A program made the translations under genes and the position numbers. Source: Comamonadaceae bacterium (GTDB taxonomy: Bacteria > Pseudomonadota > Gammaproteobacteria > Burkholderiales > Burkholderiaceae_C). Taken from it: a DNA stretch of 53,403 bases. Shown here one piece after another: positions 29,907 to 36,056 of the stretch (position 1 is the stretch's first letter; the number at the start of each line of letters is the position of its first letter). The stretch covers positions 1-53,403 of the forward strand of contig CANBQX010000001.1 in assembly GCA_947371775.1 (NCBI GenBank), written 5' to 3'. The notes beneath the pieces were generated by a model that was not told the origin of the DNA, did not search any database, and saw only the letters and a list, made by a program, of their open reading frames with translations.

Positions 29907-29982
<76 letters not shown>

Positions 29983-30017
29983 CATACTTTTGAGAAAACG
30001 GATTAGTCCAAGGTTTT

Positions 30018-30093
30018 GACCCCATCGTCTAGAGGCCTAGGACATCACCCTTTCACGGTGAGTACCGGGGTTCGAATCCCCGTGGGGTCGCCA
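30018..30093 (+). tRNA. tRNA-Glu(TTC)
   Basis: GACCCCA...TGGGGTC-G-CCA; anticodon arm TCACC-CTTTCAC-GGTGA. Confidence 0.97.
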
Positions 30094-30149
30094 GATTCAT
30101 CGCAAGATGATGAAAGCAAGAGCAGACAACGGCAACGTTGTCGCTACCA

Positions 30150-30226
30150 GGAGTGGTAGTTCAGTTGGTTAGAATACCGGCCTGTCACGCCGGGGGTCGC
30201 GGGTTCGAGTCCCGTCCACTCCGCCA
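30150..30226 (+). tRNA. tRNA-Asp(GTC)
   Basis: GGAGTGG...CCACTCC-G-CCA; anticodon arm CCGGC-CTGTCAC-GCCGG. Confidence 0.97.
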
Positions 30227-30253: not shown

Positions 30254-30286
30254 AAAAAGCCCGCTGCGCAAGTTGCGGGCTTTTTT
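30254..30286. terminator. Bidirectional intrinsic terminator between the tRNA operon and the cupin gene
   Basis: AAAAAGCCCGC-N10-GCGGGCTTTTTT. Confidence 0.85.
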
Positions 30287-30293
30287 GTTGGGT

Positions 30294-30677
30294 CTAAAAG
30301 TGGTACTCCACCTTGCTGAAGTCGCTGATGGCGAACGCATAAAGAATCGTGAGCGCTTCGTCATGCGCATTGTTGATCTGGTGCGTCGCATTACCGGGGA
30401 TAAAGAGCATTCTTCCGGGTGTCACCTCGTGCACCACACCTTCAATGGTGACGGTGCCGCGGCCTGACAGCGTGAAATAGGTTTCGGGCTGCGCATGGCG
30501 GTGTGGCTCCAGAGATTCGCCCTTTTGCAGCCGTACCACCCCCATCGTCATGTCGTTTTGGCAGCCCGTGGCGCTGCCGAGCAGCTCTTTCCACTGCGCT
30601 TTGCCGCGTACAGCGATTTGGTCGGAGGGCCAGGTGGTCCACTCGAGGTCATCGAGGTGCTGGGAGGCTGCTTGCAT
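30294..30677 (-). CDS. Cupin protein, DddW/DddK (DMSP lyase)-like
   Basis: 127 aa from MQAASQ; cupin motif 1 PHRHAQPETY, motif 2 IPGNATH, C-terminal FSKVEYHF. Confidence 0.75.
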   Translation of the reverse strand: MQAASQHLDDLEWTTWPSDQIAVRGKAQWKELLGSATGCQNDMTMGVVRLQKGESLEPHRHAQPETYFTLSGRGTVTIEGVVHEVTPGRMLFIPGNATHQINNAHDEALTILYAFAISDFSKVEYHF

Positions 30678-30724: not shown

Positions 30725-32935
30725 TCAATGGTCGAAGCGGGTGACGCCGTCCCAGTCGGCAGGCAGCACGGTTGCGTGGCGCTGCGCAATGCGGTCCAAG
30801 TAAAGCTGGGCAAGCGCCAAGCCGCCATAAGCCTGCACAAAGTACTCGAATTTCTCGGCGCTGGCGTCCCACTGTTGTGTGCGGAACTCCTGCAAGGCCT
30901 CGCTCCAGCGCTGGTGGTCGGCGCTGTGCGGACTGAAAACGATGGGGGCAAGGAAGTCGGTGTAAATCGTCACCGCCTCCTCTTTGCCTTTGACTTTGAC
31001 GCGGTCTACCTCGAGCAGGGGTATGCCGGGCAGCGCGCGCTGGGTGGCTTCGCCAATGAGGATGGCCACGCCGTAATGCTTGGTCAAGGATTCGAGGCGC
31101 GAGGCCAGGTTGACCGAATCGCCCATCACGGTATAAGAGCGACGCACGTTAGAGCCCATATCCCCCACGGTCATGGGCCCGGTGTTGATGCCCACACCAA
31201 ACTGCAGGCGCGGCCAGCCTTTGGCAGCAAAGCGTTCGTTGAGTGCTGGCAGCGCCTGCACCATGGCGCGCGCGCTCTGCAGTGCGTGTTGGGCATGGAG
31301 GCTGTCCGCCACCGGTGCGCCCCAAAAGGTCATGATGGCGTCGCCAATGTATTTGTCCAGCGTGCCCTCGTGGGAGCGGATCACCATGCTCATCTCGGTC
31401 AGGTACTCGTTGATCAAGAGCGCTAATTCTTTGGCCGGCAGTTTTTCAGAAATACTGGTAAAGCCCCGGATGTCGGAGAACAGCACGGTCAACACCTCCG
31501 CGCGGCCTTCCATGGAGTAGTGGCTGGGGTTCTGCGCCATTTTTTGCACCAGCTCGGGTGGCACGTACTGGCCAAACAAGTCTTGCATCTGCAGCTGAAT
31601 TTTCGCCGCCGCCAAGTAGTTGAACCACAGCTGTGTCAATGTGGGGGCGGCCAAGGCCAGACTGGGCGCAGCCAAGGGGACGATCCAGCGACCCTGGATC
31701 CAGGCCCACCATGCCGCGCCGAACAGCGCAGACAACAACAGCACCAGCAGCGTCACCGAGTGCAGCGGTCCGAGTCGCGGCAGTACAAAGTTGCCCAGCA
31801 CGAGCAGGCAGACGACCATCAGAATTTCAATCCACGGGGCTTGGGGTAGGGCTTTCGGAACGGTGCCGTCCATGATGCCGCTGACCATGTTGGCGTGAAT
31901 CTCCACGCCCGGGTACACCTCGCCCACCGGCGTGCTGCGCAAATCCAGCAGGCCCGAGGTGGAGGAGCCCACGATACCGATCAAGCCTTCCAAGGCGTGG
32001 GGGTCGACTTTTTTGTCCAGCACATCGGCAAGCGAGATATAGCGGTAGCTGCCTGCCACACCACGAAATGGAATCCAGGCCGAGCCATCAGGCATGAGCG
32101 GCACCTGCATGCCCGACAGGCTGAGAGACTGCAGGACCGGGCCATCGTGCAAATAGCGAGTGCCAAGCTTCAACTCCACCGGCTCAGACCCCGTGAGCAA
32201 ACGCACCAGGGCCAGCGATAGGGACTCAAAGTAATGGTCTTGGTATTCGGACAGTACCCAGGCCCGGCGCACCACGCCATCCGGGTCCAGCAGGCCTTGA
32301 AAGTGGCCAGCGGCTTGGTTTGCGTTTTGAAATTGCGCCAAGTTGCCGCCATACGAGGCCCACGGTGGCGCCAGGTTCAAGCCCGCCGGGGCGGCCATCA
32401 GGGGCACGGGCAGGGCGCCAGAAGGCGGTGTATTGGTGCGCTGGGTGAAGTAATAGCCCAGCACCACGGGGTACTTTTGCAGCGCCGCTTCAAACTGCGC
32501 ATCATTCGAGCCCGCAGGTCGGTAACTTGCCAAGGCCTGATCGATAGCGGTTTGGTGTTGGGGTGATGCTTTGGCAAATGCCTGCAGCGCCTGCAGCCCG
32601 TCAGACCGGTCGGACTCTGCGTGCACCACATCAAACCCGACCGCTGCCATGTGGTACTCGGTGAACAGCAGGTCCATCAGCTGGGCCAGACGGTCACGTC
32701 CCCAGGGCCAACGGCCGAGTCGGGGGTGGGCCAGGCTTTTTTCGTCGATATCCAAAATCACAATACGGGGGTCCACCTCGTTGATCAAGGTCGTACGCAC
32801 TCGCAGGTCGTACAGGCCCGCCTCCATGTGTTGGAGCCAGGGGCTGTTCCAAACGCCGCCCGCGTGAAGGAGCAGCGCCAAGCCGATGGCAAACCCGCTG
32901 ATCCACCGCAAGGCGGTCATGGAGAGTTGCGTCAC
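30725..32935 (-). CDS. CHASE2-domain class III adenylate cyclase
   Basis: CHASE2 (IVILDIDEKSL, WPWGR, DPDGVVRR, TPVGEVYPGVEIHA), 3 TM, cyclase motifs FSDIRGFT, DKYIGDAIM and YTVMGDSVNLASRLE, C-terminal WDGV tail. Confidence 0.93.
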   Translation of the reverse strand: MTQLSMTALRWISGFAIGLALLLHAGGVWNSPWLQHMEAGLYDLRVRTTLINEVDPRIVILDIDEKSLAHPRLGRWPWGRDRLAQLMDLLFTEYHMAAVGFDVVHAESDRSDGLQALQAFAKASPQHQTAIDQALASYRPAGSNDAQFEAALQKYPVVLGYYFTQRTNTPPSGALPVPLMAAPAGLNLAPPWASYGGNLAQFQNANQAAGHFQGLLDPDGVVRRAWVLSEYQDHYFESLSLALVRLLTGSEPVELKLGTRYLHDGPVLQSLSLSGMQVPLMPDGSAWIPFRGVAGSYRYISLADVLDKKVDPHALEGLIGIVGSSTSGLLDLRSTPVGEVYPGVEIHANMVSGIMDGTVPKALPQAPWIEILMVVCLLVLGNFVLPRLGPLHSVTLLVLLLSALFGAAWWAWIQGRWIVPLAAPSLALAAPTLTQLWFNYLAAAKIQLQMQDLFGQYVPPELVQKMAQNPSHYSMEGRAEVLTVLFSDIRGFTSISEKLPAKELALLINEYLTEMSMVIRSHEGTLDKYIGDAIMTFWGAPVADSLHAQHALQSARAMVQALPALNERFAAKGWPRLQFGVGINTGPMTVGDMGSNVRRSYTVMGDSVNLASRLESLTKHYGVAILIGEATQRALPGIPLLEVDRVKVKGKEEAVTIYTDFLAPIVFSPHSADHQRWSEALQEFRTQQWDASAEKFEYFVQAYGGLALAQLYLDRIAQRHATVLPADWDGVTRFDH

Positions 32936-34665
32936 TTGGCGAACCCGACGATGCCGCTGGCCGATGCGGTCAAAGGGTTGCTGGCCGATACCGGCAGCGC
33001 AGATGCCGTGTTGTTAAACACAAAGCCGGTCAAGACCCGGTTGCCGCCCGCCAGAAAACTGCCTGCGATCTGCGAGCCGTTGTTGTTGCGCACGGCCACG
33101 TTGTTGTAGCTTAATGCCAAGGCTGGGGTACCGGGGTTGCTGGGTGTGCCGGCACAGTTTTGCGTGCAGTTGTCCACTCGAAACTGTCCGTTTTGAATGG
33201 CCACGTTGGCATAGGAGGCGGTCCAAGTGGCTTCTTGCGCGGTGTTGGAGCCAGGGAAGAAGACAGTGAGGTTGGACGAGGCCAACAGTGCGCCGTAGTT
33301 GCTGGGTGCGGTACTGGTCGTTACCGTAAAACTGGCGTTGGTGTAAACGCCCGCGTTGCCATGGGTATCTATGGGATTGGTGCTAAGGATGGGGCTGTAG
33401 GTGAAGCTGCCCTGTGCAGGCAGTTCATTGGCGCCCAGTGGCTTGAAAAACGCGCTGTGCAGGTCTGCTGCGGGGTGGCTGGTACTGGTGGTGCCACGCG
33501 TTTGCACCAGCTGATCCACCGCGATGGTGCCCAGTGAAAAAAATTCGTCGGACGACAAATTCATGGACAACCAGTCTTGAACGGCTCGAGGATGGGTAGT
33601 GGTTTGCAGGTAGCTGTCAGTCGCCACGCTTTGGGAATTCGCGACAGTTTTTCCCGCAAGCCCGGTGAGTACGGTGCCGCTGTTGTCCAGGTAAATGGAC
33701 AGGGTGCTAAAGCTGTCTTGCGTCAGGCTGCGCGGGCGGGTCGGGTCGGTCGGTGCCACGATTTGCAGTCCACCATAACCCACCAACTTGTAGGTCGGAG
33801 GCGGTCCGGTGTCTGACACCGAGGGTGGAATGATGATGGGAATAGACGCCACGTTGATCGCTACGGCGGCGAAGTTTGAGGCTGCGATGTCTGCGGACGA
33901 AGTCGACGGAGCTGTTACGTCGGACGAGACCGACGTTCCATCTCCCGCGTCGCTGCTGTTGCCCGATGGCGCTCCAGCGTCTGTCACTGCGCCACTGGGG
34001 CCGGCCTTGGCCACTGCTTTTCTGCCCGGGGCATTGGAGGCCAGCAGCATCAGAGAAACCGGCGGACTGATTTTTTGCGGGAATTGTCCAGCACGAACTT
34101 GGATGGCTTCGCCCGCGTTGCTCAGAAGGGTGATGGTTTTTCCAGCGGCGTCCGTCGCGCTCACAGTGTGTTGGCCGGTGATCGTGTAGTTGACCGTGGT
34201 GTTATCGGACGCGACGTTGGTCACATTCCCAGTGCCTCGAATGCCGATGGTCGCCGTGGGTGTTTGGAATTTCACTGCGCTCGGCATCGCCTTACCCAGA
34301 TCGCCGGTAAACGACTTGAAGGTTCCTTCTTTGAGCGCAATCACGATGTCATTGCTGGCGTCGCCTTTGCTCTCTACGCGGTAGCGCTGGATTTCCAAAA
34401 TACTGGACGGCCGGATGTTCACAAACGCGCCGTCTTTCATTCGGAAATGCGCGGTACCGCTTTCACGACTCTCGAGTCGGTCGCCTTCATACAGTGCATT
34501 GCCTCGCGCCAGCTTGAGGGTTTCGGTGGCGCGCTTTGCGACCACCTCGCCGACGATAAATTCGACTTTCCCGGCAAGAATGGCCTGGGCACAGGCCAGG
34601 CCTTGCAAACCAGCAATCCCGACCAGCAACACCATTTTTTTCCAAGCATGCAGCCGACATGTCAT
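32932..34665 (-). CDS. Exported FecR-domain protein with S/T/A/P linker and beta-rich C-terminal domain
   Basis: Signal peptide; FecR-like EGDRLES...MKDGAFVNIRPSS...TPTATIGIRGT; low-complexity linker; C-terminal LPAQGSFTYS...GSFLAGG...SGIVGFAK. Confidence 0.82.
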   Translation of the reverse strand: MTCRLHAWKKMVLLVGIAGLQGLACAQAILAGKVEFIVGEVVAKRATETLKLARGNALYEGDRLESRESGTAHFRMKDGAFVNIRPSSILEIQRYRVESKGDASNDIVIALKEGTFKSFTGDLGKAMPSAVKFQTPTATIGIRGTGNVTNVASDNTTVNYTITGQHTVSATDAAGKTITLLSNAGEAIQVRAGQFPQKISPPVSLMLLASNAPGRKAVAKAGPSGAVTDAGAPSGNSSDAGDGTSVSSDVTAPSTSSADIAASNFAAVAINVASIPIIIPPSVSDTGPPPTYKLVGYGGLQIVAPTDPTRPRSLTQDSFSTLSIYLDNSGTVLTGLAGKTVANSQSVATDSYLQTTTHPRAVQDWLSMNLSSDEFFSLGTIAVDQLVQTRGTTSTSHPAADLHSAFFKPLGANELPAQGSFTYSPILSTNPIDTHGNAGVYTNASFTVTTSTAPSNYGALLASSNLTVFFPGSNTAQEATWTASYANVAIQNGQFRVDNCTQNCAGTPSNPGTPALALSYNNVAVRNNNGSQIAGSFLAGGNRVLTGFVFNNTASALPVSASNPLTASASGIVGFAK

Positions 34666-36056
34666 CTGAAATCCCTCCGGATGAAAACGCTGATTTCCCG
34701 CCGCTCAAACTCAAACAGCGGGATGTTGGAGCTGTTCTGGGACGCCATCATTTGGCCTTTGATGGACCAATCTGCACCCACAGCGATTTGTGCGCCGACG
34801 ACCCAATCGATGAGCGTGTCTTTGCCATATTCAACGTTCTGCTGCCCGCGCGCGAAGCTCGCGCCATCGTCTCGCATGGACCAACCCAGTCCAAAAAAGA
34901 GGTCTGCACGCTGCGGGCCATTGGTTTGTCCGAATACGCGCAAGCCCTGGGTGACTTTGCCAGGATTGTAGGTTTCGAGGGGTGCCAGGGCCGTGTCTTT
35001 GGCGTATTGGTAGGACACGCGCACAAATTGTCGGTCGTTGCGCAGGTTTTTCCACACCACACTCGCGCCCAGCTGCACTTGCTCGGTCTCCTGTGCCCTG
35101 AAATCAGGGACTTCGTTTTTGGCGTAGCTGGTAGAAAGTGCGGGCAGCAGCTCTCCACTGAGGGTTGGCCGGTATTCCGCCAAGATTCCCCAGGACTGCT
35201 TGTTGTTGGTGGTTTTGGGATCCGTCATGGATTCGCCTTCTTGAGCAAACTGCACCAGATTGAGCCCGAGACGGATGCTCGAATCGGCTTGTTCCCACAC
35301 GGATCCACCTGAGAAACTCAGGCTCATGGCATTGAATGCCTGGGCACTTGCGTAGTAATTGCGGCGCTGAGCCTCGGCGCTGGCATACAAAATCTGACCC
35401 GGCTGGTACCGATAACTCCCTTGAAGCCCAGCATTCCATCCTTGAAAAGGGGCAGGCTGCAACACGGAGTTCCCGATTGGGGGCGAGGCCTCCATACCCA
35501 GGTCACGAAACATCGGGTAAGTGTTCAGCAGCGCAGATTGGTAGCCCTCGGTTGAACTAATGGCCGACGACACATTGGAATCGTGGCCTATTTGGTACTC
35601 CAGGTATCCGGAGAGGTATTGCTTTTGCTTGGTTTGGCTTGCGTCAATCTGCTGTATTTGCTGCTGGATATCGGTTTTCAAGGACTCCGACACATCGAGT
35701 TCCAGTGCGCGCTTGAATTCTGTCTTGGCGAGGTCGAAGGCACCCAAGGCGTACAAAGCGCGCGCCGATTGAATGCGTGCCCCCGCGTGGCTAGGGTTGA
35801 TCGAAAGCACACGGTCAAAGGCCACCAAGGCCTCCTGGTAGTGCTGACTCAATGATGCGGCATAGCCGTACAGAAAATCGAACTCCACATCATCGACTTG
35901 CTCTTCGACCAAGGGCTGGAGTTGCTCGAAGGCGGCCTGCGCCTGGTGGGCCTTGAGCAGCTCACGTGCCTGCGTCAAATCCGCCGCGCCCGCCATGTGA
36001 CAGTACACAAGGCCTGCCGCAGCCAACAGGGGGGGCAGCCGTGGGTTGCGGTCCAT
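34662..36056 (-). CDS. TPR plus outer-membrane beta-barrel protein (Slam/DUF560-like)
   Basis: Signal peptide, TPRs (AFDRVLSINPSHAGARIQSARALYALG), GHDSNV at the barrel start, amphipathic strands, terminal EISVFIRRDFR; start placed at MDRNPRL. Confidence 0.78.
   Translation of the reverse strand: MDRNPRLPPLLAAAGLVYCHMAGAADLTQARELLKAHQAQAAFEQLQPLVEEQVDDVEFDFLYGYAASLSQHYQEALVAFDRVLSINPSHAGARIQSARALYALGAFDLAKTEFKRALELDVSESLKTDIQQQIQQIDASQTKQKQYLSGYLEYQIGHDSNVSSAISSTEGYQSALLNTYPMFRDLGMEASPPIGNSVLQPAPFQGWNAGLQGSYRYQPGQILYASAEAQRRNYYASAQAFNAMSLSFSGGSVWEQADSSIRLGLNLVQFAQEGESMTDPKTTNNKQSWGILAEYRPTLSGELLPALSTSYAKNEVPDFRAQETEQVQLGASVVWKNLRNDRQFVRVSYQYAKDTALAPLETYNPGKVTQGLRVFGQTNGPQRADLFFGLGWSMRDDGASFARGQQNVEYGKDTLIDWVVGAQIAVGADWSIKGQMMASQNSSNIPLFEFERREISVFIRRDFR

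Follow-up and report, generated by a model that had tools for sequence, protein, structure and literature searches.

We have analysed a stretch of 53,403 nucleotides (below, the window), positions 1 to 53,403 of contig CANBQX010000001.1 in the Comamonadaceae bacterium assembly GCA_947371775.1, and describe here three adjoining genes on its minus strand, found by open reading frame analysis and together called the triad. They encode a predicted outer-membrane barrel protein related to the Slams, a putatively exported partner protein with a FecR-like head, and a predicted inner-membrane adenylate cyclase with a CHASE2 domain. The genes, the parts of the partner protein and the gene junctions are as follows.

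34662 to 36056, minus strand: Slam/DUF560-like outer-membrane protein, 464 amino acids (AlphaFold2 model, HHalign comparison with Slams)
32932 to 34665, minus strand: partner protein and putative cargo, 577 amino acids, with a putative signal-peptidase-I signal at residues 1-26
34054 to 34587, minus strand: FecR-like head of the partner, residues 27-204 (PF04773, fold match and NsrA profile match)
33796 to 34053, minus strand: linker rich in Ala, Ser, Pro and Gly, residues 205-290, 86 in all (composition; predicted disordered)
32935 to 33795, minus strand: predicted TbpB-like lobe (handle and barrel), residues 291-577 (fold and family profile)
30725 to 32935, minus strand: CHASE2 class III adenylate cyclase, 736 amino acids (Pfam, motif positions)
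34662 to 34665, minus strand: ATGA stop/start overlap of barrel and partner genes (sequence; kept in five of five relatives)
32932 to 32935, minus strand: GTGA stop/start overlap of partner and cyclase genes (sequence; kept in G005 and L074)

An earlier note on this stretch, made from its letters alone, had described three overlapping minus-strand genes, and reading frames, strand and both overlaps are all as it claimed. The barrel gene starts with ATG and the cyclase gene with GTG, a start that is favoured because the alternative ATG five codons downstream reads ATT in the relative L074. The ATGA junction is kept in all five relatives inspected (G005, L073, L074, L075 and L077), and the GTGA junction in both of those whose sequence extends that far (G005 and L074). 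All three genes are under purifying selection, with ratios of non-synonymous to synonymous substitution rates (dN/dS) against the congener G005 of 0.139 for the barrel, 0.143 for the partner and 0.135 for the cyclase. In profile searches of the assembly (2.1 Mb, 80% complete), the sole CHASE2 match and the sole FecR match of the genome adjoin each other. Matches to Sigma70_r4_2, the extracytoplasmic function (ECF) type of sigma factor, number three in the genome, and TonB-receptor barrels eight, none of them on the contig of the triad; the absence of both from the neighbourhood, as noted earlier, thus holds for the whole contig.

The product of the first gene consists of a putative signal peptide (residues ~1-24), a TPR domain (28-143) and a predicted 14-strand beta-barrel (146-463). 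Its AlphaFold2 model, built with 134 homologues, has a mean predicted local distance difference test score (pLDDT) of 93.4 and displays all 14 strands as well as the TPR helices at 28-143. Slams are described as TPR proteins with a predicted 14-strand DUF560 barrel (PMC5449769; this and the other papers cited by number were available in part, and statements taken from them refer to that part). In Pfam, the protein matches TPR_19 (E 3e-8) and TPR_Slam (E 0.037). The direct PF04575 (DUF560/SlipAM) search that the earlier note had proposed gave no match, either with the whole protein at E<=0.1 or with the barrel domain alone at E<=0.5; the kinship emerged from profile-profile comparison, in which eight close homologues aligned with ten canonical Slams at 97.7% (E 1.4e-12, 370 columns) and a deep profile of 134 homologues at 100% (E 6.5e-44). 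The canonical templates themselves pass PF04575 at E 1e-18 to 1e-99, and so do four of the six nearest representatives of the barrel family that were scanned. At 19% identity, colinear with the canonical Slams over its full length, the barrel protein is by these profiles a divergent Slam homologue. Its closest solved barrels are CymA (Z 22.7, root-mean-square deviation (rmsd) 3.6, 289 residues aligned) and OmpG (Z 20.5); since neither sequence nor fold searches of solved structures listed a Slam entry, this comparison is with other 14-strand barrels only. The barrel had no match among plasmids.

The partner protein begins with a basic n-region, a hydrophobic stretch at residues 12-30 and an A-X-A motif before Q27, as judged by eye and from models; because Cys25 is not conserved, a lipid anchor is not expected. 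The model of the whole protein is of low confidence (mean pLDDT 53). The head scores 23.7 bits against PF04773 (FecR; cut-off 24), and 26.7 bits in the genome search. Its residues 28-125 superpose on the retention domain of the adhesin MpIBP (5ix9; Z 8.5, rmsd 2.2, 74 of 76 residues aligned; profile E 1e-5), and the head also resembles the periplasmic domain of the anti-sigma protein PupR (6ovm, Z 7.6). The match to NF033682 (retention_LapA; E 0.0023) reaches 18.1 bits, so far under its cut-off of 50 that we speak of likeness to a retention module and not of membership. The 5ix9 domain is described as periplasmic and too big for TolC, keeping the adhesin attached and unreleased (PMC5550230). 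Within the partner, constraint is strongest in the head (dN/dS 0.066) and weakest in the handle (0.18) and the linker (0.26).

The long flexible tether proposed in the earlier note is borne out by the 86-residue linker, which is of low complexity and predicted to be disordered (pLDDT ~27-33 over residues 201-290). It is the least conserved segment, at 65% identity among eight homologues, and variation is greater in handle and linker than in the head and the tail barrel. A long linker is present in all 37 FecR+TbpB proteins below 800 amino acids, with 136-467 residues between the profile matches, handle included.

For the tail (residues 296-577), the top fold match is the TbpB C-lobe 5kkx (Z 10.7, rmsd 4.5, 193 residues aligned), obtained with a low-confidence model; over the last 130 residues two 8-strand membrane barrels tie with 5kkx within 1 Z. 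Lower in the list are HpuA, fHbp, NHBA and hemophilins. A profile of 33 sequences of the partner family matches TbpB (E 6e-5) and LbpB (E 1e-3), in line with the TbpB-like C-terminal domain that had been claimed for the cargo. Foldseek with the partner model returned nothing at E<=0.001, and TbpB, fHbp and 5ix9 head its weak list. Neither residues 291-577 nor residues 411-577 gave a PF01298 match at E<=0.5; in relatives this family reaches 25.6 bits (P0029; cut-off 26) and 30.3 bits (L250), and Atlas features of the 79% identical homologue P0018 point to PF01298 clusters with low family shares. Shorter proteins matching the tail were limited to three truncated close homologues. A barrel of the TbpB type has been proposed as the targeting domain of the type 11 secretion system (T11SS; PMC8406197).

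The third gene is, on sequence grounds, an adenylate cyclase with its catalytic set intact. It comprises a CHASE2 domain (residues 21-381), membrane helices and a catalytic domain (479-656), and both Pfam domains score above cut-off (CHASE2 E 3e-53, Guanylate_cyc E 3e-23), in keeping with the inner-membrane CHASE2 cyclase noted earlier. The catalytic residues D488, K528, D532, T602, N609, R613 and K649 are all present; among 40 homologues D488 and D532 never vary, and N609 and R613 hardly do. We take D488 and D532 to be the metal-binding aspartates, K528 and T602 the adenine-selecting pair, which presumably confers adenylyl specificity, and N609 and R613 the transition-state residues. A sequence search among solved structures gave no relative of CHASE2. 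The cyclase is 41% identical over 270 amino acids to CyaK, the cyclase of a comparable known system.

In that system, the NsrA-CyaK (CyaD1/D2)-Clr relay of Sinorhizobium meliloti, NsrA is the outer-membrane receptor required for CyaK signalling (PMC7529298), and both proteins are needed for signal perception (PMC7529298, PMC13001267). The nsrA gene lies directly upstream of cyaK, and its product consists of a FecR domain (66-160), TPRs and a C-terminal barrel; it is described as a chain of 1200 amino acids with the barrel at residues 600-1200, whose loops are the proposed ligand site (PMC7529298). A FecR head, TPRs and an outer-membrane barrel, encoded directly upstream of a class III cyclase with CHASE2, are thus features of both systems. 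The cargo family aligns with the first 178 residues of NsrA at 97% (E 7.6e-11, 161 columns), which by profile makes the FecR-like head homologous to the NsrA N-terminus and upholds the link to NsrA drawn earlier. The two differ in that NsrA carries head, TPRs and a larger barrel in one chain, whereas in the window the head belongs to a second protein, one that ends in a TbpB-like tail; further, the 14-strand Slam-like barrel has no detectable homology to the NsrA barrel, only the TPR stretch aligning (probability 21.7%), and no Crp or phosphodiesterase gene adjoins the triad. A 'split NsrA' identity of the triad was rejected, the two barrels being without detectable homology. Generic TPRs aside, the head is, as far as the profiles tell, the sole domain that the genes upstream of the two cyclases have in common. 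In five relative loci, fused FecR-TPR-barrel proteins of 1110-1424 amino acids stand beside CHASE2 cyclases, and one of them matches this same gene annotated nsrA.

We also predicted the complex of head and CHASE2 proposed in the earlier note, using head residues 27-204 with two CHASE2 domains (30-364). The score was 0.44, against 0.00 for the best of three controls; individual runs gave 0.00, 0.46 and 0.44, with contact agreement of at least 0% and partner pLDDT of at least 77. The mark was reached by 116 of 157 solved pairs and by 2 of 215 mismatched pairs, though with a score no higher than 0.60 by just 18 of the 157 and by both mismatches, and the head-CHASE2 job is unlike the calibration set. 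The prediction is weak support that shifts the odds only slightly towards a head-CHASE2 contact.

How often these parts occur together was followed in four surveys. The first covered profile matches for barrel, head family and CHASE2 in 61 genomes of the same order. A head-family match comes directly downstream of 12 of the 17 PF04575 matches, and all 39 genomes that have the head family also have CHASE2, as against 9 of the 22 that lack it, counts in which kin are not independent. Genome size alone is no explanation, because genomes of 1.2-2.3 Mb have head and CHASE2, and genomes of 3.1-4.9 Mb are without both; FecR-head genes occur at ~0.4 per Mb (87 matches in the 61 genomes, a hand estimate). 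The second survey took the regions of 60 of 121 CHASE2 matches, picked by hand along the ranking and with knowledge of the FecR list; against the background of ~0.4 genes per Mb, 27 of the 60 hold a FecR-head gene within 3 kb of CHASE2. By type of CHASE2 gene, such a neighbour was seen for 15 of 38 cyclases, 5 of 7 kinases and 7 of 25 others; kinases without CHASE2 had FecR nearby in 2 of 7 cases, a count confounded by their all lying in CHASE2-chosen regions and not used as a control.

A third survey, a GTDB scan with at least 603 pattern matches, 494 of them confirmed, kept the best 80 loci, mostly betaproteobacterial. Of these, 43 hold 46 barrel+FecR pairs, and 22 of 35 complete partners carry a TbpB-like tail. 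The fourth was a draw across the phylum, with 53 barrel matches in 39 of 201 genomes and 40 regions fetched. A FecR-head gene adjoins 23 of the 40 barrels, and 11 of those 23 loci also carry CHASE2, on five cyclases (four from one genus), five kinases and one apparently split kinase; CHASE2 was found in none of the 17 regions of barrels without FecR. Other triads within the order (L045, L049 and L204) have a different gene order and an adjoining Crp-like gene; in L037 the contig ends before any barrel.

The anchors at FecR-CHASE2 loci vary: an OmpA-like partner (nine loci), LysM, two-partner secretion, the fused TPR-barrel and the Slam pair. Stand-alone FecR heads of ~150-200 amino acids, with an OmpA-C-terminal protein, stand beside CHASE2 sensors in L157, L160-L162, L165, L168, L169, L189 and L192, an arrangement that amounts to a minimal module anchored to peptidoglycan. 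FecR-head genes also lie inside two-partner secretion loci (L040, L046, L047, L056, L057, L109, L121, L150, L154, L155, L176 and L181), some with two heads and several with an adjoining CHASE2 gene, a second secretion system tied to the head. In the small congener genomes of L034 (4584-7947) and L035, a single CHASE2 cyclase is found beside a FecR head whose protein ends in a domain without Pfam match that is not TbpB-like. Barrel and FecR-TbpB pairs are followed by a TPR protein in L038, L050, L081, L088 and L100; since that protein is a family 41 glycosyltransferase in L038 and L050, the Ser/Thr-rich cargo may be glycosylated. Giant partners of 1600-2300 amino acids, with one FecR head and 3-5 TbpB-like repeats, lie behind Slam-like barrels in L079, L120, L133 and L152. 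In L241, L245 and L255 the head is fused to TPRs and a further domain, presumably CsgG-like, beside a Slam-like barrel.

Based on these findings, we tentatively propose, at rather less than an even chance, that the three genes form one surface-to-cyclic AMP (cAMP) relay in which the partner is threaded through the Slam-like pore. The partner would be exported by Sec and its TbpB-like tail led out through the pore, while the FecR-like head would stay folded in the periplasm, arrested at the pore as the MpIBP/LapA plug is. The linker, ~30 nm long when its 86 residues are fully extended (by arithmetic), would span pore and periplasm. The head is predicted to bind the CHASE2 domain in the periplasm, and a binding or pulling cue would pass from the surface lobe to the cyclase and set its cAMP output. 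That head and cyclase are functionally coupled in some form we regard as probable. We further speculate, as a somewhat doubtful generalisation, that one T11SS branch holds its cargo threaded by means of a folded FecR/retention-type head and so forms a trans-outer-membrane antenna, and that CHASE2 sensors in general receive their periplasmic input through this head, which would have been exchanged between no fewer than five anchors (the Slam thread, the NsrA-type barrel, a two-partner secretion locus, LysM and OmpA-like) and several outputs.

A number of observations weigh against the threaded relay. Slam is reported to move only unfolded substrate (PMC9090332) and soluble T11SS cargo to be released whole (PMC8406197), so that retention needs the head to fold first; in the literature as available to us no description of a retained T11SS cargo was found. 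The likeness to 5ix9 may be general to FecR folds, because the head is also found, with no pore, in the short FecR proteins encoded next to OmpA-like genes. In S. meliloti the extracytoplasmic FecR-domain protein SMc02177 is dispensable for signal perception (PMC5498481). The nearest paralogues of the cyclase (38-44%) are mostly found in a kinase/PP2C/FHA/phosphodiesterase/GAF-ATPase locus. Recurrence of the triad, which the earlier note had thought possible, holds only in part: it recurs in 11 of 23 barrel+FecR loci of the phylum draw, but CHASE2 lies within 2.5 kb of just 1 of the 46 barrel+FecR pairs in the best 80 loci, and of none of the 22 with full flanks. The cargo domain proposed for display likewise stands for the window, where a TbpB-like lobe is predicted, but not for triads at large: in the phylum draw 7 of 11 triad partners have a disordered low-complexity tail and no TbpB-like barrel, and a sensing lobe of the TbpB type is hence dispensable.

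The history of the genes adds to these points. On a quick IQ-TREE tree of 88 CHASE2 domains, from which matches of <240 or >420 residues were left out, the cyclases of the window and of G005 fall inside a clade of 19 rows, 14 of them lacking any FecR neighbour within 3 kb. Against G005, the barrel has a synonymous divergence of 0.97 and the cargo one of 0.74, compared with 0.31 in the cyclase and 0.20 in hsp33; from the higher values we conclude that barrel and cargo were not always together with this cyclase, and suggest that a barrel-cargo block may have been exchanged between lineages. The 16 Slam-neighboured rows need five changes on the tree, at least four of them forced by well-supported branches, and the Slam-CHASE2 linkage must thus have arisen or disappeared more than once. 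Such a pattern is compatible with recruitment on several occasions, with action in trans (in the way that NsrA serves CyaD1/D2) and with a chance neighbour.

A chance neighbour is what would be expected if the T11SS pair displays an adhesin or scavenger and the cyclase merely came to lie beside it in one small lineage, with cAMP at most regulating the operon. CHASE2 beside a single one of the 46 mostly betaproteobacterial pairs, a cyclase clade mostly without FecR neighbours, the triad missing at this site in five of five congeners checked and the unequal synonymous divergence of barrel, cargo and cyclase are all consistent with such independent modules. We nonetheless consider them distinctly unlikely: the 4-bp overlaps are conserved, the linkage of Slam and CHASE2 changed repeatedly on the tree (five changes, at least four forced), CHASE2 accompanies 11 of 23 barrels with FecR and 0 of 17 without, and the one FecR gene detected in the genome adjoins the one CHASE2 gene detected.

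Alternatively, the partner might be secreted whole like hemophilin-type cargo, with a periplasmic pool binding CHASE2 by the head, so that cAMP would report export load or the state of the envelope rather than a ligand from outside. The co-occurrence of head and CHASE2 and the weak complex score fit this equally well, and the putative signal peptide without a conserved Cys and the release of soluble T11SS cargo (PMC8406197) are in line with it; yet it leaves unexplained both the long linker of all 37 FecR+TbpB proteins and the triads whose partners have disordered tails, and NsrA holds this head fixed beneath a barrel, so we think it unlikely. More improbable still, in our view, is a two-chain analogue of NsrA, with the barrel as surface receptor and a wholly periplasmic partner that is docked by its cargo-like tail on the TPRs or barrel and bridges to CHASE2. 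NsrA does combine FecR, TPRs and barrel in one chain, with the barrel loops as proposed ligand site (PMC7529298), many partners are without a foldable tail, and the barrel at 19% identity is far from canonical Slams; the tail, however, is of the kind exported by Slams, and handle and linker are more variable than the head and the tail barrel, which would be expected of an exposed part.

The threaded relay may also be compared with other known systems. With T11SS/Slam systems (Slam1-TbpB, HrpB-HrpC; PF04575 with PF01298 cargo) the window shares a gene for TPRs and a predicted 14-strand barrel beside a gene for a predicted handle and TbpB-like barrel, and, putatively, with the soluble branch a partner of the signal-peptidase-I type. 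It differs in that barrel and tail fall under both Pfam cut-offs, the cargo has a FecR head and long linker, a CHASE2 cyclase follows, and no TonB receptor lies on the contig. This cargo architecture is not among the ten listed in the available part of 10.1101/2024.09.26.615229. Neither FecR nor a cyclase is mentioned in the main text of that preprint or of PMC8406197, as far as each was available; the supplement to the journal version of the former has FecR 201 times beside cluster 1 barrels (false discovery rate 0.24) and CHASE2 never, and the supplements of PMC5449769 contain neither FecR nor CHASE2. FecR is mentioned as a neighbouring iron regulator in the hemophilin preprint 10.1101/2023.03.15.532718.

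Two published neighbourhoods come close. In Campylobacterota a CHASE2 cyclase, a phosphodiesterase, an outer-membrane protein with a FecR domain and a TPR-containing protein are clustered, and one pathway is proposed for them (PMC9239204); the same three domain types are thus clustered there, and the available description differs in naming no Slam barrel, TbpB-like tail or mechanism. The novelty implied in the earlier note therefore stands for the mechanism, of which no account was found, but not for the neighbourhood of CHASE2 cyclase, FecR and TPR as such. In Burkholderia, the gene of a periplasmic LysM-FecR protein lies beside a CHASE2 sensor, here a histidine kinase; this operon differs by its peptidoglycan (LysM) anchor, kinase output and lack of a barrel (PMC5192318). 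The retention module of RTX adhesins (RIN of MpIBP, 5IX9; LapA) superposes on the first half of the head and is likewise followed by a region that could span a pore, but these adhesins leave the cell by type 1 secretion through TolC, with no Sec step, and the RIN has ~76 amino acids against ~178 in the head; its literature, in the part available, describes no signalling role. FecA-FecR-FecI signalling shares the FecR periplasmic fold, and the partner lacks its anti-sigma cytoplasmic part and any membrane anchor beyond the putative signal peptide. FecIRA-type iron signalling was rejected for the triad, whose contig holds no ECF sigma factor or TonB receptor. A full-text literature search, largely missing subscription journals, found no published description of the triad.

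Eleven genes flanking the triad were scanned, all of them of housekeeping type or unrelated to it. Two further features lie downstream of the cyclase.

30294 to 30677, minus strand: cupin gene (PF07883, E 1e-16), 47 bp downstream of the cyclase and in the same position in G005
30260 to 30278, no strand assigned: hairpin resembling a terminator, T runs on both strands, located between the cupin and tRNA-Asp genes

The cupin gene is possibly the last gene of the triad transcript. The hairpin is weak evidence alone, because 12 such sites were found against 8.6 expected; a promoter scan (4 sites against 2.3 expected) was uninformative. Genes for tRNA-Ala, -Glu and -Asp follow at 29907-30226, just past the cupin gene, so that triad and cupin gene lie between a tRNA cluster and a DUF455 gene. 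In five of five well-assembled congeners checked, this upstream DUF455 gene has no triad after it, and the site is therefore lineage-specific. GC content at third codon positions is 0.68 for barrel and cargo against 0.74-0.78 for housekeeping genes; recent transfer is not supported by this, because the DUF455 gene is equally low (0.66). TonB-receptor genes lie on the near-duplicate contig pairs C212/C213 and C216/C217, which suggests strain variants in the assembly.

Possible readers of cAMP in the genome are one Crp-like protein and two GGDEF proteins that bind cyclic nucleotide monophosphates; the latter are near-identical (G000:C7:5751-6878 and G000:C122:4500-5753) and represent a possible route from cAMP to cyclic di-GMP in this organism. 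A second class III cyclase, soluble and followed by a P-loop region, is encoded at G000:C27:6063-9242, and the 80%-complete genome gave no match to a class II phosphodiesterase. The closest paralogues of the window cyclase belong to a conserved locus in L170, L172, L175, L180 and related loci (L175:7194-16856), which encodes a CHASE2 Ser/Thr kinase, a PP2C, an FHA protein, a CHASE2 cyclase, a class II phosphodiesterase-like protein and a GAF-containing pilus-type ATPase; no FecR gene was found in this type of locus.

By analogy, we suggest that the triad may work like NsrA-CyaK-type signalling, but built from type 11 secretion parts, through a mechanism that we put forward as a proposal. We did not find in print the architecture of its cargo, with FecR head, long linker and TbpB-like tail. 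The input of CHASE2 was described as unknown in 2016 (PMC5192318), and the NsrA literature, in its available part, gave no account of how NsrA reaches CyaK across the periplasm; here the triad points to the FecR-like head as a small part common to CHASE2 systems. With three genes, the system is compact enough to be rebuilt in a laboratory strain without a cyclase of its own. If the relay is true, the type 11 secretion system, so far associated with nutrient capture, adhesion and immune evasion, would extend to signalling and to retained, threaded cargo.

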